This document shows, one piece after another, positions 18,959 through 34,034 of a stretch of DNA of 64,000 nt. The stretch is from the NCBI GenBank assembly GCA_944389385.1, contig CALXMC010000004.1, positions 8,254 through 72,253 of the forward strand, read 5' to 3'. Origin of the DNA: an uncultured Alphaproteobacteria bacterium (GTDB lineage Bacteria; Pseudomonadota; Alphaproteobacteria; Rs-D84). A model generated the notes under the pieces. The model was not told where the DNA came from and made no database searches. It saw only the letters and a program-made list of their open reading frames with translations. The position numbers and the translations under genes are program-made. Within the stretch, counting starts at the first letter, position 1. Each line of letters opens with the position of its first letter.

Positions 18959-19168
18959 ATGGATTACCAATTCATGAACCATGGGGGACAAGAGAGAGAT
19001 ACAAGACAATACGCCCTGAACAAGGAAGCGTTTAAAGACAGACTGTTTACACCGAAACAATTAGCTGACTATCTTTGTTCGTCTGTTTCGGCATTAAGCC
19101 AATATCGTGCACTGGGGATTGGACCTGCGTACTTCAAGATCGTCAAAATGGTACGTTACCCCAAATAA
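18959..19168 (+). CDS. AlpA/Xis-like HTH excisionase-regulator
   Basis: 69 aa. FTPKQLADYLCSSVSALSQYRALGIGPAYFKI resembles the AlpA-family HTH. Immediately upstream of the integrase. Confidence 0.55.
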   Translation: MDYQFMNHGGQERDTRQYALNKEAFKDRLFTPKQLADYLCSSVSALSQYRALGIGPAYFKIVKMVRYPK

Positions 19169-19266
19169 GTGGCTGGAACAAAAAAAGAAGCGATAAAAAA
19201 TAGCTGTTTCTGCTGGATATTATGTTTTTATCGTGCATTGTGTGTTTGTAATAAAGGAGTGCACAC

Positions 19267-20475
19267 ATGGCAGAACAATGGAAATGCTATACAAAGCCGT
19301 TTCGGGACACTTGGATACATCTGTTGCATTCAGATGTTAACCTGCAGGTCAGCGACGGCACCATCCCAGGATTATTCCTGCGATATTCTGCGGCAACACG
19401 CAATATTCGGTTTTTCCTGGGGTGTAAAATAGATAACAAGAAATGCAATATTTTTATAGGTCGCTACAGAGATTATTCTATCAAAGATATTCGTGACATG
19501 GCGTGGAATATGCGGCATCAAATTGCCCAAGGCGAAGACCCACGCAGAAAAAGAATAGAAGAACAACTGAAAGAAAAAGAAACGCTGGGCGAACAGGTAA
19601 AAGTACTGTTCCCACAATATATGGACAAATATTCCAAAATATACAAGAAGCCACGAACCCAGGATTCTAATTGGGGGCAATATAGATTATATTTAGCGCC
19701 TATGTTTGATAAGCTGTACATACGCCAAATAGAAGAAAAGCATGTAATGGACGCCTATGCCAAGTGGGTAAAGAAAACCTCATTCTCAACCGCGAACAAA
19801 GCGCTGTCTCTGTTCTCTAATTTCTGGGATTGGTGCGAAATGTATAAATACGTAGACCGCAATACAAACCCATGCAAGTATGTCCGCAAAGGTTCAAACA
19901 AAGTTTATAAGCCACAAATACTGGACCAAGACGGTTATCGTGCATTATCGCATGCGCTGGATGTTGGGCCCCAGGTATCTAAAATGCACCCACGGTTATT
20001 CAATGCGTTGCGGGTGCTGATGCTGACTGGGGGTCGTGCGTCTGAAATAACCGGGCTAGAGGTAGAAGAACTTGCGCTTATGCACAAGGTAATACACCTG
20101 AAAGACAGCAAGACCGGCGCCCGGGATGTAAAACTGTCTGACGCAGTTATACCATACTTGCAGGCTGCGCTGGATGAAGCAACCGCACTGGGCAGCAAAT
20201 ATGTATTCCCAGGTGTTGGGAACGAGCACAGACCAATAAACAACATCCGCAAGCCATTTGAATGGGCACTGTCATATGCCAAGCTGCCACATATGCGAAT
20301 ACACGACCTGCGACATTCGTTTATCAGTATGGGTGCAAATATCGGTGAAAATATAGCTGCCATGAAAGAAGCAGCCGGCCATTCCCGTATAACCACCACC
20401 GAAGGATATACCCACATCATGGACAGCAGCACCTATCGTGCCATCAATAACGTTGCAAATGCAATATGTGCCTAA
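19267..20475 (+). CDS. int: Tyrosine site-specific integrase
   Basis: C-terminal catalytic region with R (GGRASE), HDLRHSF, HSRITTTEGYTH (H-x-x-R...Y). 402 aa; true start may be downstream. Confidence 0.8.
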   Translation: MAEQWKCYTKPFRDTWIHLLHSDVNLQVSDGTIPGLFLRYSAATRNIRFFLGCKIDNKKCNIFIGRYRDYSIKDIRDMAWNMRHQIAQGEDPRRKRIEEQLKEKETLGEQVKVLFPQYMDKYSKIYKKPRTQDSNWGQYRLYLAPMFDKLYIRQIEEKHVMDAYAKWVKKTSFSTANKALSLFSNFWDWCEMYKYVDRNTNPCKYVRKGSNKVYKPQILDQDGYRALSHALDVGPQVSKMHPRLFNALRVLMLTGGRASEITGLEVEELALMHKVIHLKDSKTGARDVKLSDAVIPYLQAALDEATALGSKYVFPGVGNEHRPINNIRKPFEWALSYAKLPHMRIHDLRHSFISMGANIGENIAAMKEAAGHSRITTTEGYTHIMDSSTYRAINNVANAICA

Positions 20476-20535
20476 ATGGTGCATGTTGCATTTCAGTAAA
20501 ATAAAAATAGGTTCTGTAAAACCTCTTTTGATTGG

Positions 20536-20569
20536 GGGGAACGGCGACCTCGAGACCTTGTTACACACA
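20536..20569 (+). repeat. ~34-bp imperfect direct repeat flanking the Fic gene (copy A)
   Basis: GGGGAACGGCGACCTCGAGACCTTGTTACACACA versus copy B GGGTAACGGCGACCCCGCCACCTTGCTACACAC (~85% identity). Confidence 0.6.
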
Positions 20570-20692
20570 GGTTTGAAAAATTGGTTCGCAGGTTCGCACT
20601 TTGGGTGTTTTAATAGTAATTACAATATGATAAGTGCGAACCTGGGGTGCGAACCTGGTTCGCACCTAAGAACATATTTCCTTATAAATCGA

Positions 20693-21799
20693 TTATCGTT
20701 TTTCTGGCAAACTATATTTGCGGCCTTTGTTTTGACCGGTGGCAACCAAGAAACCTTTGTTAACCAATGCGACAAATAGTTGGCGTACGCGCTGTGGCGA
20801 CTTGCCCGTTATAGAAATTGCATCCGCAGCAGTAACATAACCCAGCGTGCATAACTTTTCAGCCATAGCGATAAAGAACGTCCGTTCTGTTTTGTTCAGG
20901 TCGTCTATATTCAAATCGCTACATTTATCGCTAGTTATATCGCTAGTTTTTATTTCAGGATTAGCGATATTTATAACCATGTCGTCACCTTTCAGCGAAT
21001 TGTTTTCGCCCAGCAACAGATTTCCAAAGAACAAGTTCAGGTATTTATAGGTCCGTTTGATACCGCGCGGTATATTTTCATAGTTGGCACGAACCAAGGC
21101 ATTGCGAAAATATTCTGCATAATCCTTGAATAATTCGTTATCAGCAGCAAAGCCTTTATTGTGCAGATACTTGATTGCAAATACGGCGATTGTGCGCGTA
21201 TTGCCTTCGCGAAATGGATGAATTTGCCACAGGCCAGACACGAATTGCGCGATATGTTCAACTTGCGCACGTGTGTTAAGCGTACTGTAATCAAAACGTT
21301 CTTCGCGGTCAAAGTCGTATTCCAGCGTTGGCATAATGTCCATATGGCTGGCATAGTGCACAGTATCCCCCATCAGCACGTTTTCTGCCTTGATAATATC
21401 CTTGGTACGAAGATTCCCAACCCAGTGTTCAGGCAATGCCGCATTAAACAAATACTTGTGAATAGACAGCAAAGTAGTCGGCGCAAAGGTAAAAGACGAA
21501 TTGCTTAACAGTTCTGCAATACGGTTGGAAACGGTGTCGGCCTCCCAGTATTCAATACCCAGTTCGTCACCCTCTGGGGTGCGGTAATACTGGCGCAGCG
21601 ACTGATGAACTTCGTCATGACTCAGCTTGCCTTCGATATTATCACGCGCCACCTGGTACAGATAACGCGATGGTGTCAACCCATCAACCTGTTGCAGGCC
21701 AATGGCGATATCCCAATTACGTGCCTTTTCTTGTTTAGATGGCTCTTGGGCTGTTTTGTATTCGCTGATAAAATCTGAAAACTTTGCCATATCTTTCAT
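20693..21799 (-). CDS. Fic/Doc-family protein (AMPylator-like) with C-terminal winged-helix domain
   Basis: Fic motif HPFREGNTRT (HPFx[DE]GNxR). 368 aa. C-terminal wHTH-like segment (LVALVNKGFLVATGQNKGRKYSL). Confidence 0.75.
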   Translation of the reverse strand: MKDMAKFSDFISEYKTAQEPSKQEKARNWDIAIGLQQVDGLTPSRYLYQVARDNIEGKLSHDEVHQSLRQYYRTPEGDELGIEYWEADTVSNRIAELLSNSSFTFAPTTLLSIHKYLFNAALPEHWVGNLRTKDIIKAENVLMGDTVHYASHMDIMPTLEYDFDREERFDYSTLNTRAQVEHIAQFVSGLWQIHPFREGNTRTIAVFAIKYLHNKGFAADNELFKDYAEYFRNALVRANYENIPRGIKRTYKYLNLFFGNLLLGENNSLKGDDMVINIANPEIKTSDITSDKCSDLNIDDLNKTERTFFIAMAEKLCTLGYVTAADAISITGKSPQRVRQLFVALVNKGFLVATGQNKGRKYSLPEKR

Positions 21800-21877
21800 G
21801 CCTTACACTATTGATTATATCCAAGAAATACAAAAATTCCAGTTATTTAATGGGTCCTGTGACGGGCGTTTCATATA

Positions 21878-21911
21878 CGGGTAACGGCGACCCCGCCACC
21901 TTGCTACACAC
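21878..21911 (+). repeat. ~34-bp imperfect direct repeat flanking the Fic gene (copy B)
   Basis: See copy A. The two copies bracket 20693..21799. Confidence 0.6.
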
Positions 21912-21962
21912 TGATAAAAAAACAAGACCGCATGCCGCACTGTCTAATTTCATAAATCAGAA

Positions 21963-21996
21963 TTGATTTCATGTTGATTTCAATATTGATTTCATA
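21963..21996 (+). promoter_or_regulatory. Three tandem TTGATTTCA repeats at ~12-bp spacing in the divergent Fic/Nudix intergenic region
   Basis: ATTGATTTCATGTTGATTTCAATATTGATTTCATAGG. Followed by (AGT)5 microsatellite and a purine-rich tract. Confidence 0.4.
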
Positions 21997-22277
21997 GGTA
22001 AGGAAAGTAGTAGTAGTAGTAAAGAAAAGCAAAAGATAATAAAAATAAAAGATAAAGAAAAGGTAGTGAAAGAAGAAATGCACAAAAAATTGTTGAAAAC
22101 TTACGTAAAACTGTTGATATGTTGTTAGTTATGTCTAAATCATAAAATATCGCAAAATTTAACCTTAAATGTATCGTGGTGTATCTCTATGTATAAACGC
22201 TAAAATCCGCAGAAAATAAGGACTTTACAAACCCAAAAAAACAGTGCAAGATGGTGTTGTAAAGGAAAGGATTCAGT

Positions 22278-22664
22278 GTGAAAGTAACAGCTGCGATTTT
22301 TAGAAATGAGGACCGGGTTCTGCTTATGCGACGGGCGGCTGATCAGCCGTTGGCGGGCGAATGGGAATACCCCGGTGGCAAGTTTGAAGATGGCGAAGAC
22401 GGCCCAACATGCCTGCGCCGGGAACTGGCCGAAGAGTTGGGAATCGATGCGCAAATTGGCGACCTGATTACCATCGCAAAACATACAACAGATTCTGGCA
22501 AGGTTATCGAACTGCACACATACGAAATCAAATCCTTCACCGGCGAAATTCAACTGCGCGTCCACGATGATATGCATTGGGTGCCAGTCCAGGACTTGCC
22601 ATTCCACCCACAACTCCCCGCCGACCAAATCGTATCTAAAACATTACAAGCCAAAGGAAAGTAA
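22278..22664 (+). CDS. Nudix hydrolase (MutT-like)
   Basis: Nudix box GGKFEDGEDGPTCLRRELAEELGI (Gx5Ex7REUxEExGU). 128 aa. Stop 1 nt before next start. Confidence 0.8.
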   Translation: MKVTAAIFRNEDRVLLMRRAADQPLAGEWEYPGGKFEDGEDGPTCLRRELAEELGIDAQIGDLITIAKHTTDSGKVIELHTYEIKSFTGEIQLRVHDDMHWVPVQDLPFHPQLPADQIVSKTLQAKGK

Positions 22665-22665
22665 A

Positions 22666-24642
22666 ATGAGCGACGCTTTCTACAAAAACAGTATTCATAA
22701 CTTTTTGCGCCAAAGCGATGATGAAATCTTTGGTATTATCGCCGCAGGTGACAGATACGACACGGTTGCCGCACAAAAAGACGCCTGGATGGAACAAATT
22801 CGCGTGTTGAAATATGCGCTGGCATACGCGCCATCTGGCAGCATCCTGTTTGAATACACACTGCCACGTGTGGGCGGTCGCATAGATAACATCTTGCTGA
22901 TAAACAATACTGTTTTTGTTTTAGAGTTCAAGGTCGGCGCAGAAACATATGCCAGTGATGCAATCCGCCAGGTTCGCACATACGCATTTGATTTGCAAAA
23001 CTATCATGAAGAAAGTCGTCAGTGTAAAATCGTTCCTATCTTGGTGGCAACAGGTGTACCGGATGACTACCGCAAACACGATATGCCAGAAGATGTAATC
23101 CTGACTGACGGTGATGAATTGCGTAATATATTCATTCGCAACACAGATACTTCGTGCACAACAATCAATATGGACAAATGGGCAACTTCCAGATATGTCC
23201 CAACCCCAACGATTATCGAAGCCGCGGAAATTTTATACAGCAATCACTCTGTTGCGGATATTGCGCAAAATACGGCGGCTGAAAACCTGACCAAAACATC
23301 AGACGCAGTTCAGCGTATAATTGAACATTCAAAGCAGAATAAACAAAAATCTATTTGCTTTATCACCGGTGTGCCTGGCGCGGGTAAAACCTTGGCGGGT
23401 CTGAATATCGCAATTGAAAATCAGAAAACAACAGGGCAAAGTTATTCGTGTTTCTTAACGGGTAATCAGCCACTGGTATCCGTTTTACGCGAAGCGTTGG
23501 CCGCAGACGATCATCGGCAAAACGGTACGCAAATCACAGAAGCCCGCAATAAAGTAAAATCCTTTATCCAGATAATCCACCATTTTCGTGACGCGTCATT
23601 GGAAAATGTGGATGTGCCACCAATCGACAATGTTGTTATATTTGATGAGGCGCAACGCGCATGGGTTCAATCAATGCTATCTGGTTTTATGCAAGAGAAG
23701 AAGGTTGCTGTTCTTAATCGACTGACCAACGAACAGCGGGCACATTTCTTGTCTATGAGTGAACCAGAAATGTTAATTGACTATATGAACCGACACCAAG
23801 ATTGGGCCGTAATCGTCTGTCTTGTTGGCGGTGGTCAGGACATTAACACTGGTGAAGCTGGTATCCAGGAATGGTTCGCGTCATTAAAACGTTCTTTCCC
23901 AGATTGGAATGTTTACGTGTCTGGCGACATAACATCCAATGAATACCTGGGCGATCAATCGTTTACAGAACTGACCGATGGATTGAAATGCGAAACGATT
24001 AAAGAACTGCACCTGTCCGTATCATTGCGTGCACACAGAACATCCGATGTTGCGGGTTTTGTGGATTCTTTGCTGGATAACGATGCCGCAGCCGCCGCAG
24101 AAAAATATAAGCACCTGTCCGGAATTTACCCGATTTATATGACCCGCGACTTGGCGCGCGCCAAACAATGGGTGCGCGAACAGACCGCCGGCAAGGCATT
24201 GCGTCATGGTCTGATTGCCAGTTCAAATGGTCGCAGATTGCGTGCAGATGGTATTTGGATAGAAAGTAAGTGCAAGCCGGAAAAGTGGTTCCTGGGTGAA
24301 CGTGATGATATCAAGTCTTCATACTTTATGGAAGAAGCGGCCAGTGAATTTGATATCCAGGGCCTGGAAATAGATTATGCGGTTGTTGGCTGGGATGCAG
24401 ACTATAGATATGTAAACGGTGAATTCGAATGTTTTAAACCAAGTGGTTCGCGCTGGTTAACAATAAATCAAGAATACAAGAAACGTTATCTGAAAAACGC
24501 ATATCGCGTTTTACTGACACGTGCCCGTGAAGGTTTTGTAATATTCGTCCCACGCGGCGACGCGTCCGACACCACCCGTCAACCAGAATTCTACGACGCC
24601 CTATGGCAATACCTAACCGATATTGGGGTGGAGGAGTTATAA
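22666..24642 (+). CDS. DUF2075-family protein: N-terminal nuclease-like region plus P-loop ATPase/helicase-like domain
   Basis: Start set at ATG 22666 (RBS GGAAAG). Walker A FITGVPGAGKTLAG mid-protein. Walker B-like VVIFDEAQRAW. Overall order matches DUF2075 as I recall it. Confidence 0.6.
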   Translation: MSDAFYKNSIHNFLRQSDDEIFGIIAAGDRYDTVAAQKDAWMEQIRVLKYALAYAPSGSILFEYTLPRVGGRIDNILLINNTVFVLEFKVGAETYASDAIRQVRTYAFDLQNYHEESRQCKIVPILVATGVPDDYRKHDMPEDVILTDGDELRNIFIRNTDTSCTTINMDKWATSRYVPTPTIIEAAEILYSNHSVADIAQNTAAENLTKTSDAVQRIIEHSKQNKQKSICFITGVPGAGKTLAGLNIAIENQKTTGQSYSCFLTGNQPLVSVLREALAADDHRQNGTQITEARNKVKSFIQIIHHFRDASLENVDVPPIDNVVIFDEAQRAWVQSMLSGFMQEKKVAVLNRLTNEQRAHFLSMSEPEMLIDYMNRHQDWAVIVCLVGGGQDINTGEAGIQEWFASLKRSFPDWNVYVSGDITSNEYLGDQSFTELTDGLKCETIKELHLSVSLRAHRTSDVAGFVDSLLDNDAAAAAEKYKHLSGIYPIYMTRDLARAKQWVREQTAGKALRHGLIASSNGRRLRADGIWIESKCKPEKWFLGERDDIKSSYFMEEAASEFDIQGLEIDYAVVGWDADYRYVNGEFECFKPSGSRWLTINQEYKKRYLKNAYRVLLTRAREGFVIFVPRGDASDTTRQPEFYDALWQYLTDIGVEEL

Positions 24643-24646
24643 CCAT

Positions 24647-25480
24647 ATGATTAAAGAATATCCATTGCCACATCCGTTAAAGAATGATGACGTAGACACC
24701 TTAATGAAAAAAATAAGGATGATGGTTCGCACCATGGAATCATTTCACCCTCAGGCTACAAAAGACAAGGCTCTTATGGGGCTACATAGTTTGGTGGGGG
24801 CTATTATTTCTCTGTCGGCAGAGGTTTATGATGCTTTGCAAAATAACAGAGTTTTTGTGGCCAGTTCCATTACGTGCCAAATTTTAGAAGCTGAAATACA
24901 ACTGCTATGGTTAAACAAGCATTTTAATACCAGGGGTAAAGATTTTATAGATTTTGGATATGTTGAACAAATAGAAATGTTATGTGTACACCCAGATCGT
25001 AAAGATAGGGTTTTAGAATTACTGAAGCAAAATAATTGCGACAGATTCTTACGTAAAGGCCTTAAGAATCCAAATAGACTAGATCGTAACAGTTACAACA
25101 AAAAGTGGTATGGTGATACGATACAAAACATATCAGAAGATTATTTCAATCCTGTTTTGGAATCGATTCAAGACACACCAGAGTTGGTTGCATATTATGA
25201 AAACAAAGATATAAACTACGAAAATTATCAACTGTTTTGTGGCTACAAACACTTTTCACCATATTTAGTAAGAAGATTTTTCGCAACAAGTCAATCTTTT
25301 CAAGAAGATGAAAGCAAATATGCTAGGGTGGCGGTTTTGCAAACTGTTTTGAATTCATTACTAAATGTCTGTTTCGTTCTTGAACAACATGGCGATCCAA
25401 TATTGCATATCAAGCCACTCGCAACAGAAGGGTTGGCGCCCGCATCCGCCAAACAAAAAATACAGGAAGAACGCAATTAA
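24647..25480 (+). CDS. Hypothetical protein (operon member)
   Basis: 277-aa ORF starting 4 nt after the DUF2075 stop with RBS GGAGGAG. No recognised motif. Confidence 0.45.
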   Translation: MIKEYPLPHPLKNDDVDTLMKKIRMMVRTMESFHPQATKDKALMGLHSLVGAIISLSAEVYDALQNNRVFVASSITCQILEAEIQLLWLNKHFNTRGKDFIDFGYVEQIEMLCVHPDRKDRVLELLKQNNCDRFLRKGLKNPNRLDRNSYNKKWYGDTIQNISEDYFNPVLESIQDTPELVAYYENKDINYENYQLFCGYKHFSPYLVRRFFATSQSFQEDESKYARVAVLQTVLNSLLNVCFVLEQHGDPILHIKPLATEGLAPASAKQKIQEERN

Positions 25481-25548
25481 CATATTGTTCCCTTGACTTT
25501 ATGGTTTGTTTTGGTCTAACTTTCTTACTGAGGAAAGGTTCAAGAACA

Positions 25549-26529
25549 ATGGAATATGAAATTGATATCAGAGAAAATATGATATTGAGAAAGTGGCCAG
25601 TTTTACTGGATATTCTGTTGTATGATCATACGACAAAAAAAAATATTTTCTGGGCTACAGATTTATATGAAAACCATTATGGTAATAGATACTCATTTAG
25701 GTCTCAAATAAAACCGGAACTTATTACTGGTATAAACGATGGCATAATCAAACCTCGTGTAGCGAAGACTAAGAAAGCACAGCAAGATCGCGTTAAGGAT
25801 AAAGCAGAGGTTTTTACGCCCTCCTGGATATGTAACAAACAAAATAATTTGATAGATAATGATTGGTTTGGTTATGAAGGGGTTTTCAACAAAGAAAAAG
25901 ATGACAACACCTGGATCCCCACTAAGAAGCCTGTTGTGTTTCCAGAGGGGAAAAACTGGGTTGATTATGTTCGTGAATTGCGGTTAGAGGTTGCGTGTGG
26001 TGAGGCACCGTATTTAGTAAGTCGATACGATATTACAACTGGAAAAAAGATAAAAATACCTAATAGAATTGGTTTGCTGGATCGGAAACTCCGCATTATA
26101 AATGAAAATGCAGCCAGTGATAGCGAATGGTTTGCGATGGCAAAATGGGCATTCAAAAGCACATATGGTTATGAATGGCAGGGGGATAATTTATTGCTGG
26201 CTCGAGAAAACTTGTTGTTCACGTTTATTGAGTACTATCAGGATAGATTTGACGAAGAACCGGGATTAGAAATTTTAATGGAGATCGCAGAAATTATTTC
26301 TTGGAATATATGGCAAATGGATGGAATTCGTGGTGTTTTACCGTGTTCTTGCTGTAATTCAAAACATATAGACTTATTCGGTGAAAAAACTAGGGGGGGG
26401 TGTCTTGGTTGTAAAACCGGCGATATTCATAGTCATAACGGTATATATTGCAAGATTCGTGATTGGAATAGCAAAACAAAACGTCCAAAAACATTAACTT
26501 TTGTATCATTGTTAAAGGATATAAAATGA
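25549..26529 (+). CDS. Methyltransferase-like protein with degenerate gamma-class motifs X and I, no NPPY, and a C-terminal Cys cluster
   Basis: EVFTPSWICNKQNNLI resembles motif X of N6-adenine MTases and is near-identical in pattern to EVPTPINVCDNIINLI in the next gene. LEVACGEAPYLV resembles motif I (DPACGxGxFL). No NPPY. C-terminal CSCCN...CLGCK...C cluster. Confidence 0.45.
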   Translation: MEYEIDIRENMILRKWPVLLDILLYDHTTKKNIFWATDLYENHYGNRYSFRSQIKPELITGINDGIIKPRVAKTKKAQQDRVKDKAEVFTPSWICNKQNNLIDNDWFGYEGVFNKEKDDNTWIPTKKPVVFPEGKNWVDYVRELRLEVACGEAPYLVSRYDITTGKKIKIPNRIGLLDRKLRIINENAASDSEWFAMAKWAFKSTYGYEWQGDNLLLARENLLFTFIEYYQDRFDEEPGLEILMEIAEIISWNIWQMDGIRGVLPCSCCNSKHIDLFGEKTRGGCLGCKTGDIHSHNGIYCKIRDWNSKTKRPKTLTFVSLLKDIK

Positions 26530-29500
26530 AAGATTTAAATCTTGATGAAGTTATAGTAGGTAGAGTAGAACCACATATATACGCCTTTACAACGAATACC
26601 ATACCGAACTATTTAAAGGTTGGAGATACATATCGTACTGTCAAAAGTAGATTGGAGGAATGGAAAAAATATTTTCCGAACCTAAAAGCAGAGTTTGATG
26701 GAAGTGCAAAAATATCTGATGGAGTTTTTGTTAGAGATTATTCTGTGCATCAATATTTGGAAGGCGGTATACATAGAGATAGGTTAACGCCAGAGATTTT
26801 AAAGCAAATTTCGCCAGCAGCTTATTTTTCTAAAGAATTTTTTAAAAATGCCACTGCACAAGATGTTAGTGATGCGTTGACTGATATTCGGGAATCGTTT
26901 GCTAATAACGATAACAGGTATAGTTTTTATAATTTAGATCGTATGCCTGTAGTTCACCAGTATGCCTCAACAGGATTCTGGAAGCCTCGTCCAAATCAAC
27001 AAGATACGATAGATAAAATTAAGGAGGCTGTTGAGAAAGGTAGAACCAATTTGCTAATGTATGCAGTAATGCGCTTTGGAAAATCTTTTACAGCCCTATG
27101 TTGCGCAAAGGAAATAAACGCTGAAATCGTATTGGTTGTTTCTGCAAAAGCTGATGTTAAGGAAGAATGGCGTAAAAATGTTCAAAGTGCAGATAATTTC
27201 AGAGACGATTATATTTTTGCAGATGCAAAACAATTGCGAGATGAGGAAGGTTTAATCAAAAACACGCTGGATAATAAAAAAAAGGTGGTTTTGTTTTTGA
27301 CTTTGCAAGATTTGCAAGGAACAGATATTAAAGAAAAACACAAAGAAGTTTTTGATAACAAAATAGATCTGTTAATTGTTGACGAAACTCATTACGGGGC
27401 TAGGGCCGAAAAATATGGTGCTGTTTTGCGTCAAACAAAGGATATAAAGCAAGACTATTCAACAGAAGGTTTTGTAGATATAGAAGAGGCTGATAAACAG
27501 ATAAAGACCCTTAAGGCCAAGATAACGCTACACCTATCAGGAACACCGTATCGCATATTGATGGGCAGCGAATTTACCAAAGATGACATAATTGCTTTTT
27601 ATCAGTTTACAGACATTGTAAAGGCGCAGGAGAATTGGGATAAAGAAAACCTATTAAAGGACGAAGCAGAACCAGAATGGGACAACCCTTATTTTGGTTT
27701 TCCGCAAATGATACGATTTGCGTTTCACCCAAGTACAGTCGCTAAAGCAAAGCTAGACGAGTTAAGGAAGAATGGTGTTAGTTATGCATTTTCTGAGTTG
27801 TTTAAACCAAAATCGATCTATCGTGCAGGTGACGAAAGTCATAAAATGTTTGTCCATGAGTCCGAGATTTTAGATTTGTTCACAGTGATAGATGGCAGTA
27901 AGAACGATAAAAATGTTCTTGGTTTTCTTAATCATGACAAAATCCAATCAGGAAATATGTGTCGCCACATAGTTTGTGTGTTGCCATATTGTGCTTCTTG
28001 TGATGCGCTGGAAAAACTTATACAAGACAATGCAGATAAATTTAAAAACTTGCGGGACTACGAAGTAATAAATATCTCAGGTGTTGATGCTGCTAGAACC
28101 TATAGAGATGTTAATGCTGTGAAGAGAAAGATTAAGGAATGCGAAGCCGATAACAAGAAAACTTTAACTTTGACAGTGAATCGTATGCTTACGGGTAGCA
28201 CGGTTGAAGAATGGGATACAATGATTTTTTTGAAGGATACCGCATCCCCACAAGATTATGACCAGGCTGTTTTTCGTCTGCAAAATCAATATGTTAGAAA
28301 ATATGTTGATCCTAAAACAGGGCAGGAAATCAAATATAACATGAAACCGCAAACATTATTGGTCGATTTCGATCCAAATCGTATGTTTATGATGCAGGAA
28401 TCTAAATCACAGATATATAATGTAAATACGGAAGTAAACGGAAATTCTAAATTACAAGACAGAATCCAAGAAGAATTGCGTATTTCGCCGATTATAACCA
28501 TAAATCAAGACAAAATAAGTCAGGTTGATGCGTCGGATATTATTGATGCAGTTAGCGAATATTCGAGTAAACGCGGTGTCTGGGACGAATCAAAAAGCAT
28601 TCCTGTAGATTTTGAATTATTAAAAGATCAACAGATATTTGATGTAATAAATAGTCAGGGGGAAATTGGATCTAACCAGGGATTGAAGGTCGAAGGAAAT
28701 GTCGGTGATGATGTTGATATTGATGTGCCACCGGTAGAACTTCCGGAACCTCCTGTTGAGCCAAAAGATCCGGCGCCAGTGGTTGCTGTTGAAAAAGACG
28801 ATATGAAAAGTTTGGAAAATAAATTCAAAACTTATTATTCCAGAATATTATTTTTCGCCTTTTTAACAAACAATAAAGTTACATCATTGGATGATGTATT
28901 AAATTGCATCACAAAAGAAGATAATGTGCGTATAGCAAAGAATTTAGGTTTAAAATATCAGATATTGGTTAGCATAAGAAATAAAATCAACAGTTATATT
29001 TTGCAACAGCTGGATTACAAAATATATGATATCAGTAAATTGGCACACGATACAGAGGTTGAGCCTATAAATCGTGCGGAAACGGCATTGATAAAGTTTG
29101 GGCGTTTTTCAGAATCCGAAGTCCCAACGCCAATCAATGTTTGTGACAATATAATAAATTTAATACCAGATGACGCATTTCTGTCACTCAAGAAACAGAA
29201 TAATGCAATGTTGGATATAGCAAGCAAGGCCGGTGAATTTGCGATCGCTATTTGTAAAAGATGTGAAAAGATAGGCATCGATATAGAATCAATAAAAGAT
29301 TCCGTGCTGGCTATACCCACATCATCGGTTGCGTATGAATTTACGCGCAAAGTTTATGAATTTCTTGGTTTGAATATCAATGCGATAGCAGCAGAATTTA
29401 ATAGTTATGATTTGTTGGATGTTAAGATGTTGGACAGACGTGGCAGACCAACAAAGAACATAGATTATGCACGTGTTGCTGCTATATTAAAACAAACTAA

Positions 29501-30593
29501 GCCACTGGATAAAATTAAATTAAATGATAATATTGAAGAAGCAGGAGAAAATAAAATGCAGTTTCAAGCAGTTGTTGGAAATCCGCCATACCAAGAAGCG
29601 CGCCAGAATACTAGTGATAATCCTATATATCATTTATTTATGAATGTAGCATTTCTGCTGAGTAATAAAGCATCATTTATTACGCCTGCTAGGTTTTTAT
29701 TTAATGCCGGTAAAACCCCAAAAGAATGGAACAGGAAGATGCTTGACGATGAGCATGTTAAGGTTTCATCTTATGAAAGAGAATCTAAAAAGTATTTCCC
29801 TCATACCAGTATAAATGGCGGAATTGCAATAACTTATAGAGATACTTCAAAAAAATATGGTGCAATTAAATTTTTTCGACCATATAAAGAAATGGGGAGT
29901 GTTGCAGATAAAATATTGAATTACAAAAACTTTGAAAGCATCAAAGATATGGTTTATCTCCAAAATAAATTTAATTTAGAGGCGCTATATAAAGATTATT
30001 CTAAAGCTAAAACAAAAATTAGCTCTGCTGGTAGCGAAAAGCGAATAGTGTCATCTGCTTTTGAGAACCTTACTGAAGTTTTTTCAGATGTGATGCACAC
30101 AAAAAGTAGTGTTCCTATTTGTGGATTATTCAAGAGAAGAAGGATAGTCAAATACATTGAGGAAAAATATTTAGAACGTGGATCAAATATAGATCATTAT
30201 AAAGTTTTACTTTCTTCCGCTGATGGGGCGAGTGGTACCATAGGCAACCCTGTACCAGCAAGGGTGATTGGAGAGCCAGTTGTGTTGGATGCTGGTGTTG
30301 GATACACTCAGACATTTATTTCAATTGGAGCTTTTAAACGTAAAAAAGAAGCGGATAATTTACAGAAATATTTAAAAACTAGATTTGTTCGTTTCATGGT
30401 GGGGACTCTAAAGGCAACAAATGGGCTTAAGATAGAAGTTTGGTCAAATGTGCCAAAACAGGATTTTTCTGACGCGTCTGACATAGATTGGTCAAAATCC
30501 ATTGCTGAAATAGATAAGCAGTTATACAAGAAGTATGGGCTGGATAAGAAAGAAATTGATTTCATTGAATCTATGATCAAACCAATGGAGTAA
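26526..30593 (+). CDS. Fused GIY-YIG nuclease / SF2 helicase-ATPase / gamma-class N6-adenine methyltransferase / C-terminal putative TRD (Type ISP/IIG-like RM enzyme)
   Basis: N-terminus HIYAF-(9)-YLKVGDTYRTVKSRLEEW fits GIY-(9-11)-YIG...R...E. Helicase motifs I RFGKSFTAL, II LLIVDETHYGA, III LSGTPYRI, VI QAVFRLQN. MTase motifs X EVPTPINVCDNIINLI, I LDIASKAGEFA, IV VVGNPPYQ. ~450 aa after NPPY for target recognition. ATGA overlap with upstream gene. Confidence 0.7.
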   Translation: MKDLNLDEVIVGRVEPHIYAFTTNTIPNYLKVGDTYRTVKSRLEEWKKYFPNLKAEFDGSAKISDGVFVRDYSVHQYLEGGIHRDRLTPEILKQISPAAYFSKEFFKNATAQDVSDALTDIRESFANNDNRYSFYNLDRMPVVHQYASTGFWKPRPNQQDTIDKIKEAVEKGRTNLLMYAVMRFGKSFTALCCAKEINAEIVLVVSAKADVKEEWRKNVQSADNFRDDYIFADAKQLRDEEGLIKNTLDNKKKVVLFLTLQDLQGTDIKEKHKEVFDNKIDLLIVDETHYGARAEKYGAVLRQTKDIKQDYSTEGFVDIEEADKQIKTLKAKITLHLSGTPYRILMGSEFTKDDIIAFYQFTDIVKAQENWDKENLLKDEAEPEWDNPYFGFPQMIRFAFHPSTVAKAKLDELRKNGVSYAFSELFKPKSIYRAGDESHKMFVHESEILDLFTVIDGSKNDKNVLGFLNHDKIQSGNMCRHIVCVLPYCASCDALEKLIQDNADKFKNLRDYEVINISGVDAARTYRDVNAVKRKIKECEADNKKTLTLTVNRMLTGSTVEEWDTMIFLKDTASPQDYDQAVFRLQNQYVRKYVDPKTGQEIKYNMKPQTLLVDFDPNRMFMMQESKSQIYNVNTEVNGNSKLQDRIQEELRISPIITINQDKISQVDASDIIDAVSEYSSKRGVWDESKSIPVDFELLKDQQIFDVINSQGEIGSNQGLKVEGNVGDDVDIDVPPVELPEPPVEPKDPAPVVAVEKDDMKSLENKFKTYYSRILFFAFLTNNKVTSLDDVLNCITKEDNVRIAKNLGLKYQILVSIRNKINSYILQQLDYKIYDISKLAHDTEVEPINRAETALIKFGRFSESEVPTPINVCDNIINLIPDDAFLSLKKQNNAMLDIASKAGEFAIAICKRCEKIGIDIESIKDSVLAIPTSSVAYEFTRKVYEFLGLNINAIAAEFNSYDLLDVKMLDRRGRPTKNIDYARVAAILKQTKPLDKIKLNDNIEEAGENKMQFQAVVGNPPYQEARQNTSDNPIYHLFMNVAFLLSNKASFITPARFLFNAGKTPKEWNRKMLDDEHVKVSSYERESKKYFPHTSINGGIAITYRDTSKKYGAIKFFRPYKEMGSVADKILNYKNFESIKDMVYLQNKFNLEALYKDYSKAKTKISSAGSEKRIVSSAFENLTEVFSDVMHTKSSVPICGLFKRRRIVKYIEEKYLERGSNIDHYKVLLSSADGASGTIGNPVPARVIGEPVVLDAGVGYTQTFISIGAFKRKKEADNLQKYLKTRFVRFMVGTLKATNGLKIEVWSNVPKQDFSDASDIDWSKSIAEIDKQLYKKYGLDKKEIDFIESMIKPME

Positions 30594-30597
30594 CGGT

Positions 30598-30942
30598 ATG
30601 AAAATGTTGCACATTTTTATATTACTTGTATTTCCACTTGCGCTGGTTGGATGTTCTGAACCTGCACCGGAATGCTGGTCGCCTTCTGTAAAAAGCTTAC
30701 TAAAAGATATAGCGAAAGAAAGCTATAACAAGGAAATAGTAGGGTTTGAAGAAGTTGTGGAGATGGAAGTGTTTAATAATGTTACTCCACAAAGACGTGC
30801 TTGCTCAGCCAAACTGGTAACCAAATACAATGAAAAAGAAGCTACATACCAGTATTTTGAGGTAGATTATGTCGTTAGAACCATCCGTGGCGAAAATAAT
30901 ATGTACTACACTTCAGTAACCGATATGCATCGAAAATTATAA
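30598..30942 (+). CDS. Small lipoprotein, hypothetical
   Basis: Signal peptide with lipobox LALVGC. 114 aa. Confidence 0.5.
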   Translation: MKMLHIFILLVFPLALVGCSEPAPECWSPSVKSLLKDIAKESYNKEIVGFEEVVEMEVFNNVTPQRRACSAKLVTKYNEKEATYQYFEVDYVVRTIRGENNMYYTSVTDMHRKL

Positions 30943-30962
30943 GATATAGGATAAGATGAAAA

Positions 30963-31676
30963 ATGGATACATGTAATATTTTGGAATATATTGGCATGGG
31001 AGGCGATTATGTTATTAAAAATATAGTCAAACTTCTTACTAGCTGGCCTTTTATTGTACTGGTTGTGTTTTTTGCGCTCAGAAAATACTTTGTCGCAATT
31101 TTGAAAAAAATAAAAGAAGATTTGCGAGTAAAAGACAACAAATTTTCACTTGGTGACTCAAATCAGCCAGATATTCAAAATAGCACACAAGACAAATTAT
31201 TTGATATTCCTGCAACTACTTCTGATAAGAAGTTAAAAAAGCGTAAGGCAGAATACGATCTTCCAGAATTGCCTGATACGGGCTTGAAGGCTTATACATT
31301 AGAAATAGAAAATAAGTTAAAGAAAGATTTAGCGGAATCGCCGTATAAAAAAATAGATATAATGGTTAGGGATTCGACAAATTATAGGATAGCAACGGAG
31401 TTTGAACGTATATATAGAATTATCTTTGGAAGCCAAATACGATTGTTACGTCATTTGGAAGCAGCAAAAACACTAACAAAAAATGAAGTAGCTAAGTTTT
31501 TCAAACAAGAAAAACGTAAAATGCCGGATAGCAATATTGAATTAGAACCTTGGACCAAATTTGTGCAATCTCAGGGACTGATGGAGTACAAAGATGGGGA
31601 ATATACAATTACAAATAAAGGGTTAGCTTTTATAGCCTATTTAGCCCTTTTCAATTATGAGGATAGGCTGTGGTAA
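30963..31676 (+). CDS. Hypothetical membrane-anchored protein
   Basis: N-terminal TM (WPFIVLVVFFAL). K/E-rich soluble domain. 237 aa. Confidence 0.45.
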   Translation: MDTCNILEYIGMGGDYVIKNIVKLLTSWPFIVLVVFFALRKYFVAILKKIKEDLRVKDNKFSLGDSNQPDIQNSTQDKLFDIPATTSDKKLKKRKAEYDLPELPDTGLKAYTLEIENKLKKDLAESPYKKIDIMVRDSTNYRIATEFERIYRIIFGSQIRLLRHLEAAKTLTKNEVAKFFKQEKRKMPDSNIELEPWTKFVQSQGLMEYKDGEYTITNKGLAFIAYLALFNYEDRLW

Positions 31677-31728
31677 AAATAAAAAGAAAAAATAATGAAT
31701 AAATAGCCAAGTATCATTTTAAATAATG

Positions 31729-32247
31729 TTATATATTAAAAGTAGTAAAAAAATTTTGTAGTTCTTTATCTGAAACAGTGTGTGACAATATATCACTTAC
31801 ATTTTTCAAATTTGTTTTTTCTTTTGGATTTAATCTTTGGTGTCTTAAATTTTCAAAACATTTGCGTATAAGATGCTGTTTGGTGTCCGGTAAATAGGCG
31901 ATGCATGCTAAATGATTATTTTTTCTTTTGTTCATTAAATCAGATTCATTTTCAGTGCAGATTTTTCTGATGTCAAAATGAGAACATCCGGATAAATATT
32001 GTGTAGGTCTGGATGTTAATGAATCTTTTATCAAACATAACCATTCTTTTTCTGTTACAGAAAACGTTAAGCTATGATTTGTATAGTCTTTTGATGTAGA
32101 AACAAAAAAATACAGTACTTCCCGAATAAGAGGCATCCGGTTTATAAATAATTTATATTTACGTTTGCAAACATTTGTGGTTTCTTCTACAGATTGTTCA
32201 TCAACGTAACACCAAAACGGTTGAAAATATTCCATTTTAAGCAGCAT
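31729..32247 (-). CDS. Putative toxin partnered with a Panacea-domain antitoxin (no recognisable family)
   Basis: 172-aa ORF. 11-nt overlap with upstream Panacea gene in operon arrangement. No known toxin motif seen. Confidence 0.4.
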   Translation of the reverse strand: MLLKMEYFQPFWCYVDEQSVEETTNVCKRKYKLFINRMPLIREVLYFFVSTSKDYTNHSLTFSVTEKEWLCLIKDSLTSRPTQYLSGCSHFDIRKICTENESDLMNKRKNNHLACIAYLPDTKQHLIRKCFENLRHQRLNPKEKTNLKNVSDILSHTVSDKELQNFFTTFNI

Positions 32248-32725
32248 ACATATTTAAAACTTCACCCATATGCTCTGTGCCGCCAAGAGTCGCACCAATT
32301 AAAACCATAGGTTTTGTGTTATAGGCTATTTCTGTTAAAGTTTTAGCTCCGTATCCCTGCACATGTTCCAGCATAGTAGAAACAATGTTCAGTTCATCTG
32401 GTGACAAAGAATCTGTTTCTACTGATGTAGGATCGGTAAGATTGTAAACTACGTGCTCGTCGCTTCCAAAGAAACAGGATTCTGCAGATATCGTTCCTTC
32501 TTCGCGCATGTTTTCAAGGTTTTTGTAAATAGTACTATCAAAAGGACCAAAATTCCAACGGATATATTTAAATTCGGATATAGGTTTCCCAATATTGCGA
32601 ATTGCGGCCAAGTCAATCAAGTATGATATTTTTAGCAAACTAGTAACTCCGCGTGGGCCATCACGCAAAATGAGCGCCAAAAGCTGTTTCGTTTTCTGAC
32701 ACATAAAATTTCTCTTTGAGTTCAA
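32237..32725 (-). CDS. Panacea-domain (DUF4065, GepA/SocA-like) putative antitoxin
   Basis: KQLLALILRDGPRGVTSLLKISYLIDLAA...ISEFKYIRWNFGPFDSTIYKNLENM fits the DUF4065 pattern (LQKLLYLAD...W.YGPV...Y). Confidence 0.5.
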   Translation of the reverse strand: MNSKRNFMCQKTKQLLALILRDGPRGVTSLLKISYLIDLAAIRNIGKPISEFKYIRWNFGPFDSTIYKNLENMREEGTISAESCFFGSDEHVVYNLTDPTSVETDSLSPDELNIVSTMLEHVQGYGAKTLTEIAYNTKPMVLIGATLGGTEHMGEVLNMYAA

Positions 32726-33216
32726 TGCAATTATAACACATTATGTTAAAATTATAAAAGCATAAAATTAGGTTTTTAGAAAAATAGGACTAAAAAATAA
32801 AAAAAGCAACAAAAATATCTCGTTGCTCATGCTGACAATTATACCATAATTTGCTTAAAAAGTCAATAATAACTAGTTGTTGGTCACGAAAATATGGACT
32901 TGTAATAACTTGACATCTGTGTCAACTTGTGCTGGATGCGGCGGGGCAACCATGTCTGCCGGCATGTTAGGTTGCCGTTGTTTGTTCTGCGGATAGCTCC
33001 AACTCGTGTAATGATCGGCATGCTGCGAAATAAAGCATAATAAAATCCGTCTTATTACTGGGCTCAATTTCTCGAAAATGTTTGTACTTCATAGACAATC
33101 CTTTTAAGGTTGTCGTATTTGGCATAATCTTTCGTCACTTGCCCAGTCATTTGTTGTAACTAAAGGATATTGCTTGTTTTTCAATTTTTTGGTAATTTGG
33201 AACAAAAGGGGACAAA

Positions 33217-34017
33217 ATGGCAGATTATAAGGAATATCTGGATAAAATAAGAAATTCGCAGTTGTTATATTTTGATTCATTTCCATTGGATATGACGTCT
33301 TGTGAATATAATGTGCATTTGTTGTTGAATAAAATGGCGGAAGCAAGAAAGTCATACCTTTTGCTAATGGATAATGAACGATTTACGGATGCTATGTTGG
33401 TGGCAGGACATTTGCTAGAGAATGCAGCGGTGATCAATTATCTTTCTGCTAGCTTGCAAGAAGCTAATACAAAACAAATAAGCAAATATCTGGCACGAGA
33501 AACGGTACAAACTCTATGTGATTTATTCAAATTTGTAGGCGATGATAATGTGGATGCGGAAACTCAAGAAAATATAGATTTTATAATGGATGATTTTAAG
33601 AATAGATGCGACATAGTTGTATCGAAAAAAGCGGAACAAAGTCACGAAGAATTGGTCCAGACTATATTGATGGCTATGACAAATTCGGAAAAATTAAGAA
33701 TTATAAAAAATAATTACGAATTTCCGGTGGTTGAAGATTATTTGAGGCCGTTTAGGAAAGATTTATCAAATTTTTATGGTTTTTCCGGTATTGATAAAAA
33801 GCTTGTGTTGTTTTATTCGTCATATTGCAAAATAAAACACTGCGGGGCGGCTATGTATGTGCCAGTTCTATGCAAAGATATGGTTGTTATGAATAAAAAT
33901 CAGTACAGAGGCCTTAGCCCTATAGTTGTCTGGATGTGTTTGGAATACACAGAAAAGAATATAAAAAATATATTGTCAAAAATAAAACCAGAATTAGGAT
34001 TAACAGCCAAAAACTAG
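33217..34017 (+). CDS. Hypothetical protein (266 aa), convergent with reverse transcriptase
   Basis: Clean ORF. No recognised motif. Confidence 0.4.
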   Translation: MADYKEYLDKIRNSQLLYFDSFPLDMTSCEYNVHLLLNKMAEARKSYLLLMDNERFTDAMLVAGHLLENAAVINYLSASLQEANTKQISKYLARETVQTLCDLFKFVGDDNVDAETQENIDFIMDDFKNRCDIVVSKKAEQSHEELVQTILMAMTNSEKLRIIKNNYEFPVVEDYLRPFRKDLSNFYGFSGIDKKLVLFYSSYCKIKHCGAAMYVPVLCKDMVVMNKNQYRGLSPIVVWMCLEYTEKNIKNILSKIKPELGLTAKN

Positions 34018-34034
34018 ATGTTTTTTATAACGTT

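Follow-up and report, generated by a model that had tools for sequence, protein, structure and literature searches.

Nhi is a single-protein nuclease-helicase defense system that combines PD-(D/E)xK and DUF2075 domains (10.1101/776245), and an "Nhi-like" protein of the same architecture has also been validated (10.1101/2022.05.11.491447). NUDIX hydrolases are modules that are swapped among defense systems (PMC9226505), and a DUF5677 protein from Enterococcus gave no protection against the six phages tested (PMC12632615). Among restriction-modification enzymes, those of Type ISP (LlaGI and LlaBIII) carry a nuclease, an SF2 motor, a gamma N6-adenine methyltransferase and a recognition region on one polypeptide that acts alone, and classical Type IIG enzymes (MmeI and Eco57I) lack a helicase motor. 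The three DnmA-YeeB-YeeC genes of Bacillus subtilis and Vibrio, found in a defense-island context, encode an N6A methyltransferase, an SF2 helicase and a T5orf172/GIY-YIG nuclease (PMC9973331). The B. subtilis study detected neither restriction nor phage protection, and saw no site avoidance (PMC9973331).

We compared these systems with a gene cluster in a 64,000-nucleotide window of DNA from a gut alphaproteobacterium (Candidatus Enterousia-like). As originally predicted, five co-oriented open reading frames (g1 to g5) lie on the + strand at 22278-30593. Reading the sequence gave a gap of 1 nt between g1 and g2 (TAA-A-ATG) and of 4 nt between g2 and g3 (TAA-CCAT-ATG); g3 and g4 are 68 nt apart, and g4 and g5 overlap by ATGA (26526-26529). 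Since conserved homologs exist for every one of the five, these are real genes. The integrase-bearing island in which they were said to reside is a tRNA-Asn integrative island of 18 kb (18253-36262). A k-mer search found a perfect 46-bp copy of the 3′ part of tRNA-Asn at its left boundary (18253-18298), identical to the direct repeat at the right boundary (36217-36262), within the tRNA-Asn gene (36218-36293, - strand). The island encodes a P4-like tyrosine integrase (19267-20475, + strand; Pfam Phage_integrase and Arm-DNA-bind_3) that is 99.5-99.8% identical to the integrases of two Candidatus Enterousia/Alphaproteobacteria MAGs (L010 and L020). It is a defense island, and a neighboring cargo gene encodes a Fic-domain protein (20693-21799, - strand; Pfam Fic; PADLOC PDC-S72, 6e-97). 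The domains proposed for the five proteins all agreed with Pfam and PADLOC matches. The combination, however, had been called unrecognized, and PADLOC already lists three of its components: PDC-S07, PDC-S41 and a Type IIG enzyme with an MTase_II partner.

Judged from its sequence, the cluster splits at 25481-25485 into module A (g1 to g3) and module B (g4, g5 and a sixth gene, g6, which had been overlooked). DNA homology to a stand-alone g4-g5-g6 locus (L033) begins at 25485, 5 nt past the g3 stop codon, and extends to 30897, interrupted only at a variable region, and GC content falls from 0.43-0.44 at 22-25 kb to 0.34-0.37 at 25-31 kb. Pairs of g4-like and g5-like genes stand alone in Flavobacterium rhamnosiphilum (L029), in further loci (gut contigs L030-32, and L033/34) and on a Pediococcus plasmid, where the surrounding genes are unrelated or have housekeeping roles. 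More broadly, the pair occurs without module A in Bacteroidota and on plasmids of Bacillota and Actinomycetota, and Bifidobacterium has a split variant of the system. Loci encoding a Nudix-g3 fusion or g3 alone likewise lack g4-g5. Only one other lineage (L018) has a Nudix/DUF2075/g3 array, and in it the place of g4-g5 behind g3 is taken by Gabija. Both there and at a Nudix-g3 fusion locus (L020), g3 is followed by Gabija and then by a split T5orf172-helicase/MTase system; split T5orf172-helicase and Eco57I-MTase genes are present in the sister islands L018, L008, L009, L012 and L016.

These results bear on the original proposal that all five genes form one composite anti-phage module, in which the Nudix and DUF2075 proteins would act as sensor or effector and depend on g4-g5 for self/non-self marking. 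The tight spacing, the common strand and the lack of a convincing internal terminator fit such a system, and the arrangement was found unchanged in 23 contigs. Yet those contigs all belong to the same lineage and encode identical proteins. The five-gene order was found only within that lineage, and a lack of conserved synteny had been named at the outset as counting against the proposal. The array followed by Gabija, the occurrence of g4-g5 alone in other phyla, the break in GC content and homology, the separate upstream region of g4-g5 and the absence of g4 from 80 DUF2075 loci (below) also argue against one system, which we consider very improbable. Instead, the cluster is best explained as two defense modules, each mobile on its own, that lie head to tail in the tRNA-Asn island (probability about 0.7). 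Scans for promoters and terminators across the cluster gave scores no better than those of shuffled sequence; co-transcription of g1 to g5 from a promoter upstream of g1 is possible.

Module A is predicted to comprise an Nhi-like nuclease-helicase (g2) with a Nudix accessory of the MutT type (g1); the gene for a stand-alone DUF5677-like protein (g3) follows directly. The 658-aa g2 protein (22666-24642, + strand) matches PF09848 (DUF2075/SLFN-g3_helicase, 2e-72) and, over its full length, PADLOC PDC-S41 (2e-250). Like Nhi and the Nhi-like protein, it has an N-terminal PD-(D/E)xK nuclease domain (D74, E87-x-K89) followed by a DUF2075 SF1 helicase (Walker A 235-242, DEAQ 327-330), with motifs that are invariant among 33 homologs. 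The catalytic motifs of g1 and g5 are intact as well. However, g2 scores only marginally on the PADLOC Nhi model (E 1e-3), grouping instead with PDC-S41, and differs from Nhi and the Nhi-like protein in that about one-sixth of its subfamily is coupled to a Nudix gene. A two-term literature search found no mention of Nudix coupling to Nhi-like proteins.

The Nudix gene itself (22278-22664, + strand) has a GTG start and encodes a 128-aa protein whose Nudix box is intact (PF00293, 2e-20; PADLOC PDC-S07, 6e-35). Among NCBIfam models, g1 comes closest to NudG and MutT, although it falls below the cut-off of these and of every other NCBIfam equivalog model. By HMM score, g1 and g2 are clear members of PDC-S07 and PDC-S41. 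In PADLOC these are separate single-gene candidates, whereas in the window the two genes are coupled translationally, and the PDC-S07-type Nudix is also found fused to the DUF5677-like protein.

Examination of 80 metagenomic DUF2075 loci, chosen by two peptide patterns, revealed a Nudix gene adjoining the DUF2075 gene on the same strand at 14 loci (a count that includes near-duplicate contigs). The Nudix gene may lie on either side of its partner; most pairs overlap by 4 nt or are at most 7 nt apart, and these Nudix proteins represent at least three lineages with 25-37% mutual identity. No other neighbor family at the 80 loci was both tightly coupled and recurrent across lineages, and neither g3 nor g4 was found near DUF2075 at any of them. 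Of the idea that Nudix, ATPase and fusion protein belong together, the functional link between Nudix and DUF2075 is supported, by evidence beyond that offered originally, while the tie to g4-g5 is not (g4 at 0 of 80 loci).

The third gene (g3; 24647-25480, + strand) encodes a rare all-alpha protein of 277 aa with a weak match to DUF5677; fold comparison gave no informative match. In related genomes it is either fused in frame to a g1-type Nudix or unaccompanied; at 10 or more loci the solitary gene has a start codon of its own, preceded by non-coding DNA. A distant relative is a moron in a prophage tail module. The fusions form nine protein clusters with a common junction, in which the g3 part is 62-95% identical to that in the window. 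Comparison by blastn revealed that homology between the window and the fusion loci stops at 22636 and restarts at 24653. The intervening 2016-bp segment (22637-24652, + strand), which is present in the window and L018 and missing from the fusion genes, contains the DUF2075 gene and the stop and start signals that separate Nudix from g3, such that the DUF2075 gene sits exactly at the fusion junction. The Nudix sequences of the fusions and of the three-gene arrays share 80-92% identity. Because the outgroup Nudix sequences (L035, 67-68%; L053, 61-64%) are both paired with DUF2075, the Nudix-DUF2075 pair must predate the three-gene array. By parsimony over a few lineages, the in-frame fusions most likely arose through deletion of DUF2075 from such an array.

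A different reading is that five or six independent one- or two-gene systems have been compacted, with Nudix, DUF2075 and g3 not interacting and their fusions and adjacencies being by-products of deletion. PADLOC's treatment of PDC-S07 and PDC-S41 as single genes, the 66 of 80 DUF2075 loci without a Nudix neighbor and the many loci with g3 alone are consistent with this. However, retention of the in-frame fusion in nine clusters while the g3 part diverged to 62% identity points to selection acting on the fused protein. Adjacency of Nudix and DUF2075 across three or more distantly related Nudix lineages, in both orders and with overlapping stop and start codons, and the status of Nudix as the sole recurrent neighbor of that kind also speak against wholly independent genes, a reading we regard as possible though unlikely.

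We favor the view that the Nudix is a portable helper that may serve either effector, g2 or g3. Most likely, it would hydrolyze nucleoside triphosphates, whether phage-specific modified dNTPs or dNTPs generally, and could thereby leave replicating phage DNA scarce or unmodified and exposed to attack. By analogy with Nhi, g2 may sense and degrade phage replication intermediates. The Nudix could instead be an antitoxin-like safety device that destroys a nucleotide activator or otherwise restrains g2 and g3 until infection. Its variable position around the effector, translational coupling as in toxin-antitoxin pairs and the recurrence of NUDIX domains in signaling-based systems (PMC9226505) fit this idea. 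Since 66 of 80 DUF2075 homologs and many g3 homologs lack a Nudix, however, these effectors are not obligately toxic; moreover, g1 resembles MutT/NudG rather than the ADP-ribose or cyclic-nucleotide types, and the module lacks a signal-producing enzyme. A safety device thus seems quite improbable.

Module B is predicted to be a self-contained, ATP-dependent, single-chain restriction-modification system. Its upstream region (25485-25548, + strand) retains conserved blocks, a TTGACT box (~25493-25498) and the ribosome-binding site AGGAAAGG. The first gene, g4 (25549-26529, + strand; named "restriction endonuclease subunit M" by NCBI), has no Pfam match and a full-length match to PADLOC MTase_II (4e-112). 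As had been noticed, it is a catalytically degenerate methyltransferase-like protein: its fold resembles gamma N6A methyltransferases, with LlaBIII as the best structural match, while the family consensus lacks both NPPY and GxG. A zinc-type Cys/His cluster lies at its C terminus. It is an obligate partner, always beside g5.

The 1355-aa g5 protein (26526-30593, + strand; Pfam T5orf172, ResIII and Eco57I) matches PADLOC REase_MTase_IIG over its full length (1281 bits). From N to C terminus it contains a T5orf172/GIY-YIG-like nuclease, an SF2 helicase (GKS 185-187, DETH 286-289), an N6A methyltransferase (NPPY 1019-1022) and a variable region, the presumed target-recognition domain. In DNA this region (29596-30323, + strand) is the sole gap in an 80%-identical match to L033; in the protein alignment, variable columns span ~aa 1025-1300. 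The third gene, g6 (30598-30942, + strand), encodes a lipoprotein-like protein of 114 aa with an LVGC lipobox. It accompanies g4-g5 in the closest relatives, starting 4 nt after g5 in the window, L033 and L034, with 77% identity in the latter two.

Type ISP enzymes share with g5 both the set of domains on one polypeptide and their N-to-C order. However, their nuclease is Mrr/PD-(D/E)xK, whereas that of g5 is T5orf172/GIY-YIG-like, and g5 is always accompanied by the separate degenerate subunit. Neither g4 nor g5 has detectable sequence similarity to PDB chains, LlaBIII included, and the PDB holds no member of the family by sequence. The Type IIG label of REBASE and PADLOC, a sequence-cluster annotation, covers both proteins; unlike classical Type IIG enzymes, g5 has a helicase motor, and its "MTase_II" partner lacks catalytic motifs. 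DnmA-YeeB-YeeC resembles g4-g5 in domain set but is encoded by three genes with an MmeI-like methyltransferase first, in contrast to the nuclease-first single chain plus g4.

We found no biochemical paper on this family, and the proposed restriction role rests on domain content. If restriction is its function, g5 would mark self DNA with m6A and may translocate along and cut unmarked DNA. The degenerate paralog could pair with the active g5 methyltransferase, perhaps as the two Mod protomers of Type III enzymes do, and aid DNA recognition or control. Alternatively, g4-g5 could be methylation-linked with a different or defunct function, not classical restriction. The B. subtilis results (PMC9973331), the missing catalytic motifs of g4 and our failure to find a solved or characterized family member are compatible with this. 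Yet the g5 nuclease, helicase and NPPY motifs are invariant among relatives 48-75% identical, and a hypervariable recognition region within an otherwise conserved protein fits the specificity diversification expected of active restriction-modification. In addition, the family has very many members, which are borne on plasmids and islands, and Vibrio homologs of the split system reportedly affect phage sensitivity (cited in PMC9973331). We therefore consider a non-restriction role unlikely.

Under the two-module explanation, the genes would be closely packed because the island is compacted and perhaps transcribed by read-through, and not because they build a five-part machine. What is new here is the repeated pairing of a small Nudix enzyme with two different defense proteins.

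Five plus-strand open reading frames lie at the coordinates and with the spacings that the original prediction had read from the sequence, and profile searches (Pfam, PADLOC, and NCBIfam) confirmed its domain assignments for all five proteins. The Nudix gene (g1, 22278-22664) begins with GTG and ends in TAA, one base before the ATG of the DUF2075 gene (g2, 22666-24642). The TAA of g2 is followed by CCAT and then by the ATG of g3 (24647-25480), which encodes a DUF5677-like protein. After a 68-nt gap come the methyltransferase-like g4 (25549-26529) and, joined to it by an ATGA overlap, g5 (26526-30593), which encodes a nuclease/helicase/methyltransferase fusion. A sixth small gene on the same strand, g6 (30598-30942), starts 4 nt 3′ of g5. 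Its 114-aa product has a lipoprotein-type signal (LVGC), and it accompanies g4 and g5 in two comparison loci, L033 and L034. Farther 3′, g7 (30963-31676) encodes a 237-aa protein that matched no family and was observed in this lineage only.

These genes did not prove to be the single novel five-gene system that had been proposed, as the set does not co-occur across independent lineages and its sub-modules are found separately. The neighborhood survey that had been suggested as a check found five-gene synteny confined to one lineage: the exact order occurs in 23 contigs, which do not constitute independent evidence because all encode identical proteins and belong to that lineage. Nor are the components unrecognized, since they are already cataloged as candidate or predicted systems (the PADLOC candidate defense models PDC-S07 and PDC-S41, and Type IIG with MTase_II).

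Several features place a boundary just after g3. GC content is 0.43-0.44 across g1-g3 and 0.34-0.37 from 25 kb on. DNA homology of 80% to L033 and L034 begins at 25485, five bases past the g3 stop, and covers g4, g5, and most of g6; both loci contain g4-g5-g6 and lack the Nudix, DUF2075, and g3 genes. The 64 nt upstream of g4, conserved with L033, contain a TTGACT box and a ribosome-binding site (AGGAAAGG), so g4-g6 appear to bring their own putative expression signals. No upstream gene co-occurred with g4 in the contexts examined. In L020, a sister island, the same integrase and Fic gene are followed by a fused Nudix-g3 gene and then by convergent Gabija genes encoding GajA (AAA_15 and TOPRIM) and GajB (UvrD). 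In L018, a second sister island, Nudix, DUF2075, and g3 genes are followed by the same Gabija pair and by a split T5orf172-helicase and Eco57I methyltransferase. These differences between the sister islands and the window are cassette swapping at one island slot. We conclude that g1-g3 (module A) and g4-g5 with g6 (module B) are distinct modules that meet at 25481-25485, and that g4-g5 is autonomous. Tight spacing in defense islands is therefore no proof of a multi-gene machine, as here a cassette boundary lies inside the 68-nt gap.

The Gabija genes convergent to g3 in the sister islands encode a GajA of 667 aa and a GajB of 582 aa (L018, 10817-18734; L020, 6896-10622). The split system of L018, which sits where the window has g4-g5, comprises an 843-aa T5orf172-helicase and a 522-aa Eco57I methyltransferase that are 24-29% identical to g5.

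The predicted setting, an integrase-bearing island, was upheld. A 46-bp perfect direct repeat matching the 3′ part of tRNA-Asn (18253-18298 and 36217-36262, with the right copy inside tRNA-Asn) delimits an 18-kb integrative island. Also encoded on the island, besides the two modules, are a P4-like integrase, a Fic protein, a SocA/Panacea pair, and a Drt2-type reverse transcriptase. The integrase is 99.5-99.8% identical to those on Candidatus Enterousia and Alphaproteobacteria MAG contigs, and because of this near-identity we assign the host to the gut alphaproteobacteria of the Candidatus Enterousia group. The integrase lies at the island end distant from the tRNA gene. The Fic-domain protein (20693-21799, minus strand) matches the PADLOC candidate PDC-S72 (6e-97), with a weak SoFic match, and a Fic gene beside the integrase is also present in L020, L046, and related loci. 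The reverse transcriptase (34035-35576, minus strand) matches PADLOC Drt2 (6e-126); the noncoding RNA expected of this type would be located upstream of it, from 35577 to the tRNA.

Two noncoding or poorly annotated segments were also noted. The intergenic region preceding the Nudix gene (21960-22100) is purine-rich and of low complexity (GTAGTAGTAGTAGTAAAGAAAAG...) and falls within a 94.6%-identical match to L020. A segment of ~230 bp (32924-33155), overlapping small minus-strand ORFs of 64-92 aa, is found again, 66-86% identical, in many related island loci (L001, L002, L005, L006, L010, L011, L013, L022-L024, L026, L033, and L034). Pfam gave no match for the small ORFs and Rfam none for the segment, which may represent a conserved small gene or an element of the island backbone. 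An Rfam search recovered two tRNAs and no other RNA family, and promoter and terminator scans performed no better than on shuffled sequence.

Within module B, g5 has the features of a single-chain restriction-modification enzyme. Its Pfam domains are T5orf172 (aa 17-62), ResIII (153-342), and Eco57I (948-1084), followed by a variable C-terminal region, and it matches the PADLOC model REase_MTase_IIG (PDLC03626) end to end (1281 bits, aa 6-1354). Protein alignment revealed an invariant N-terminal GIY-YIG/T5orf172-like block, a Walker A GKS (185-187), DETH (286-289), and N1019-P-P-Y1022. DNA homology to L033 is interrupted solely at 29596-30323, which coincides with the variable protein columns (~aa 1025-1300), while the remainder is highly conserved. 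This alignment pattern is that of an exchanged, putative target-recognition domain. Searches of the PDB with the g5 sequence and with a profile matched no chain, including 4xqk (LlaBIII). Long contigs of up to 969 kb encode truncated g5-like proteins (464-486 aa), which suggests that copies of the enzyme have decayed in other genomes.

The description of g4 as a degenerate methyltransferase-like paralog is a fair one. The protein matches the PADLOC MTase_II model over its full length (4e-112) and has the features of a methyltransferase fold, with no Pfam domain detected by profile search. A g4 profile run against the PDB likewise yielded nothing useful. Motif IV, (N/D)PP(Y/F), and the GxG of motif I are absent both from g4 and from the consensus of a 37-member family, leaving it without NPPY. 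Family members carry an invariant CGEAPY at the position of motif I and, close to the C-terminus, a Cys/His cluster that is likewise invariant. Resemblance to g5 is restricted to the motif-X stretch (BLAST, E 0.08). The family has >8000 homologs, is ~58% identical across Bacteroidota, and bears the NCBI name "restriction endonuclease subunit M". A g4-like gene precedes a g5-like gene in every context examined and in most is directly followed by the gene for a 1320-1410-aa ResIII and Eco57I protein. These contexts include Flavobacterium rhamnosiphilum, where the pair lies between housekeeping genes, three gut contigs with differing neighbors, L033/L034, and a Pediococcus plasmid; in Bifidobacterium, a variant of the pair is split and rearranged.

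Comparison with known systems places g5 nearest to two classes. It fits Type IIG as modeled in PADLOC and REBASE, by its full-length model match and NPPY motif. Like Type ISP enzymes, it combines nuclease, helicase-like ATPase, N6A methyltransferase, and recognition regions in one polypeptide, in the same order. However, the Type ISP nuclease is an Mrr-family PD-(D/E)xK enzyme, whereas that of g5 is T5orf172/GIY-YIG-like, and Type ISP enzymes act without an accessory subunit, whereas g5 has a g4-like partner. By domain order g5 would thus work like Type ISP, yet it lies outside that family, because its nuclease belongs to another superfamily, its sequence resembles neither LlaBIII nor any other solved structure, and its partner is obligatory. 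DnmA-YeeB-YeeC is a split relative with the same kinds of domains; no restriction was seen for this system in B. subtilis, while Vibrio homologs were reported to alter phage sensitivity (PMC9973331).

In module A, g1 matches PF00293 (2e-20) with an intact Nudix box (GX5EX7REUXEEXGU, reading GKFEDGEDGPTCLRRELAEELGI). Its nearest NCBIfam models, NudG (95.9 bits; cut-off 156) and MutT (73.7 bits; cut-off 97.9), both score below their cut-offs. The idea that g1 is a housekeeping MutT was rejected because the gene is located within the att-bounded island and its product fits the defense-island Nudix model PDC-S07 (6e-35). The g2 protein matches PF09848 (DUF2075/Schlafen-group-3 helicase; 2e-72) and, over its full length, PDC-S41 (2e-250). 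Invariant motifs are D74 and E87-x-K89 (PD-(D/E)xK), Walker A GKT (240-242), and DEAQ (327-330). This architecture, PD-(D/E)xK with a DUF2075 SF1 helicase, is that of Nhi and of a validated "Nhi-like" protein (10.1101/776245; 10.1101/2022.05.11.491447). The match of g2 to the PADLOC Nhi model is marginal (E 1e-3, aa 216-343), and a sequence search of the PDB returned nothing useful.

With 45 clusters at 90% identity and 38 profile matches among 1.84 billion representatives, g3 belongs to a small family that is nearly confined to these gut alphaproteobacteria. The g3 protein itself scores 25.3 bits against DUF5677 (PF18928), where the cut-off is 27.1, and matches at E≤0.01 (best, 4e-8) were obtained for 28 of 31 family members. 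It is predicted to be all-alpha (pLDDT 72), and the predicted structure gave no specific structural match. Assignment as a HEPN protein was rejected: two of the 31 members have weak HEPN_DZIP3 matches, and the family consensus has no conserved Rx4-6H motif. A scan of viral contigs found no relatives. A distant relative (profile E 3e-47, 255 aa) is present in prophage at L133 (5814-6581) and also at L134 and L135; at L133 it lies between the tape-measure gene and distal tail genes, a typical moron position, which fits an accessory, defense-type role. The papers we found list DUF5677 solely among candidates that were left untested or proved negative; in Enterococcus, a DUF5677 protein failed to protect against six phages (PMC12632615).

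The g3 gene takes three forms. It occurs alone, with its own start codon (MLN/KEYPL..., the slash marking the junction) and a noncoding upstream region; as an in-frame fusion to the same Nudix, of ~400 aa (nine protein clusters, about eight distinct contigs), with the junction ...HPQLPADKKVSEVLIKQKVELQ/KEYPLPHPL...; and in the three-gene array Nudix/DUF2075/g3, in the window and L018 only. A further homolog, P0010 (304 aa, on a 1.7-kb contig), is linked to the N-terminal portion of a sigma-70 region-2 protein at the same ELQ/KEYPL junction and may represent an assembly chimera or further recombination at this junction.

Homology of the window to the Nudix-g3 fusion genes ends at 22636 and resumes at 24653. 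Therefore, a 2016-bp segment with the DUF2075 gene and flanking stop and start signals lies exactly at the Nudix/g3 domain junction. Nudix and DUF2075 genes are also neighbors elsewhere. In a metagenome sample of 80 DUF2075 loci (44-81% identity), a Nudix gene adjoins the DUF2075 gene on the same strand in 14; it lies upstream in two and downstream in 12, and in most it overlaps the DUF2075 gene by 4 nt or is separated from it by ≤7 nt. These Nudix genes represent at least three lineages, 25-37% identical to each other, and no other neighbor family recurs across lineages in the sample as Nudix does. In a g2 relative at 77% identity, which lacks g3, a Nudix gene overlaps the start by 4 nt. Neither g3 nor g4 was found in any of the 80 loci, and most members of the large g2 family stand alone. 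Coupling of Nudix to DUF2075 is recurrent, and the Nudix-g3 fusion is real. The main rival explanation for module A treats its three genes as independent units brought together by compaction alone.

Among themselves, the Nudix sequences from the fusions and from the three-gene arrays share 80-92% identity. Because the outgroup Nudix sequences, from L035 (67-68%) and L053 (61-64%), are both paired with DUF2075, parsimony suggests that the Nudix-DUF2075 pair came first and landed before a stand-alone g3, with fusions arising by deletion of DUF2075. Derivation of the fusion linker VELQ from the DUF2075 C-terminus (VEEL and stop) was set aside, as the match is too short to serve as evidence. NUDIX hydrolases are described as modules exchanged among defense systems (PMC9226505), and our literature search found no paper linking DUF2075 with Nudix and none on PDC-S41.

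Catalytic motifs are intact in g1, g2, and g5. In the mechanism we propose, g5 and g4 would methylate self DNA and, following ATP-driven translocation, cleave DNA of foreign origin; g4 would pair with the g5 methyltransferase and, itself non-catalytic, serve in recognition or control. The g2 protein may degrade phage replication intermediates in the manner of Nhi. The MutT-like Nudix would be a portable helper that most likely hydrolyzes (modified) dNTPs, leaving phage DNA scarce or unmodified, and g3 could be a stand-alone effector or sensor, assisted by that helper too. The main rival to this helper function is an antitoxin-like safety role for the Nudix. A bolder, joint reading holds that the Nudix is a portable "booster" for effectors of unrelated folds, that Nudix, DUF2075, and DUF5677 form a genuine three-component system whose unfused state is ancestral, and that g4-g5 is an uncharacterized motor-driven restriction class, with a GIY-YIG-type nuclease and a dead-methyltransferase partner mimicking a Type III Mod dimer. 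We consider this combination unlikely as a whole, at roughly one chance in five. The Nhi-like protein would recruit the booster through operon coupling, whichever gene comes first, and the DUF5677-like protein through gene fusion; the booster could act by hydrolyzing phage-specific modified dNTPs or by draining dNTPs, exposing phage DNA to nucleases.

Two aspects go beyond existing catalogs: the partnership of Nudix with two effectors unrelated to each other, together with the relationship between the nested-gene arrangement and the fusion, and the g4-g5 family, for which we found no biochemically characterized member in the literature. The Nudix-DUF2075 partnership, together with the Rosetta-stone fusion to a rare DUF5677-like protein, could reveal how nucleotide-pool enzymes aid nucleic-acid-targeting immunity. 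The g4-g5 pair would represent a very large family of motor-driven, single-chain restriction-modification enzymes with an obligatory pseudo-methyltransferase subunit. Since this family is found in several gut phyla, it is relevant to phage resistance in the gut microbiome and to the interpretation of methylomes.
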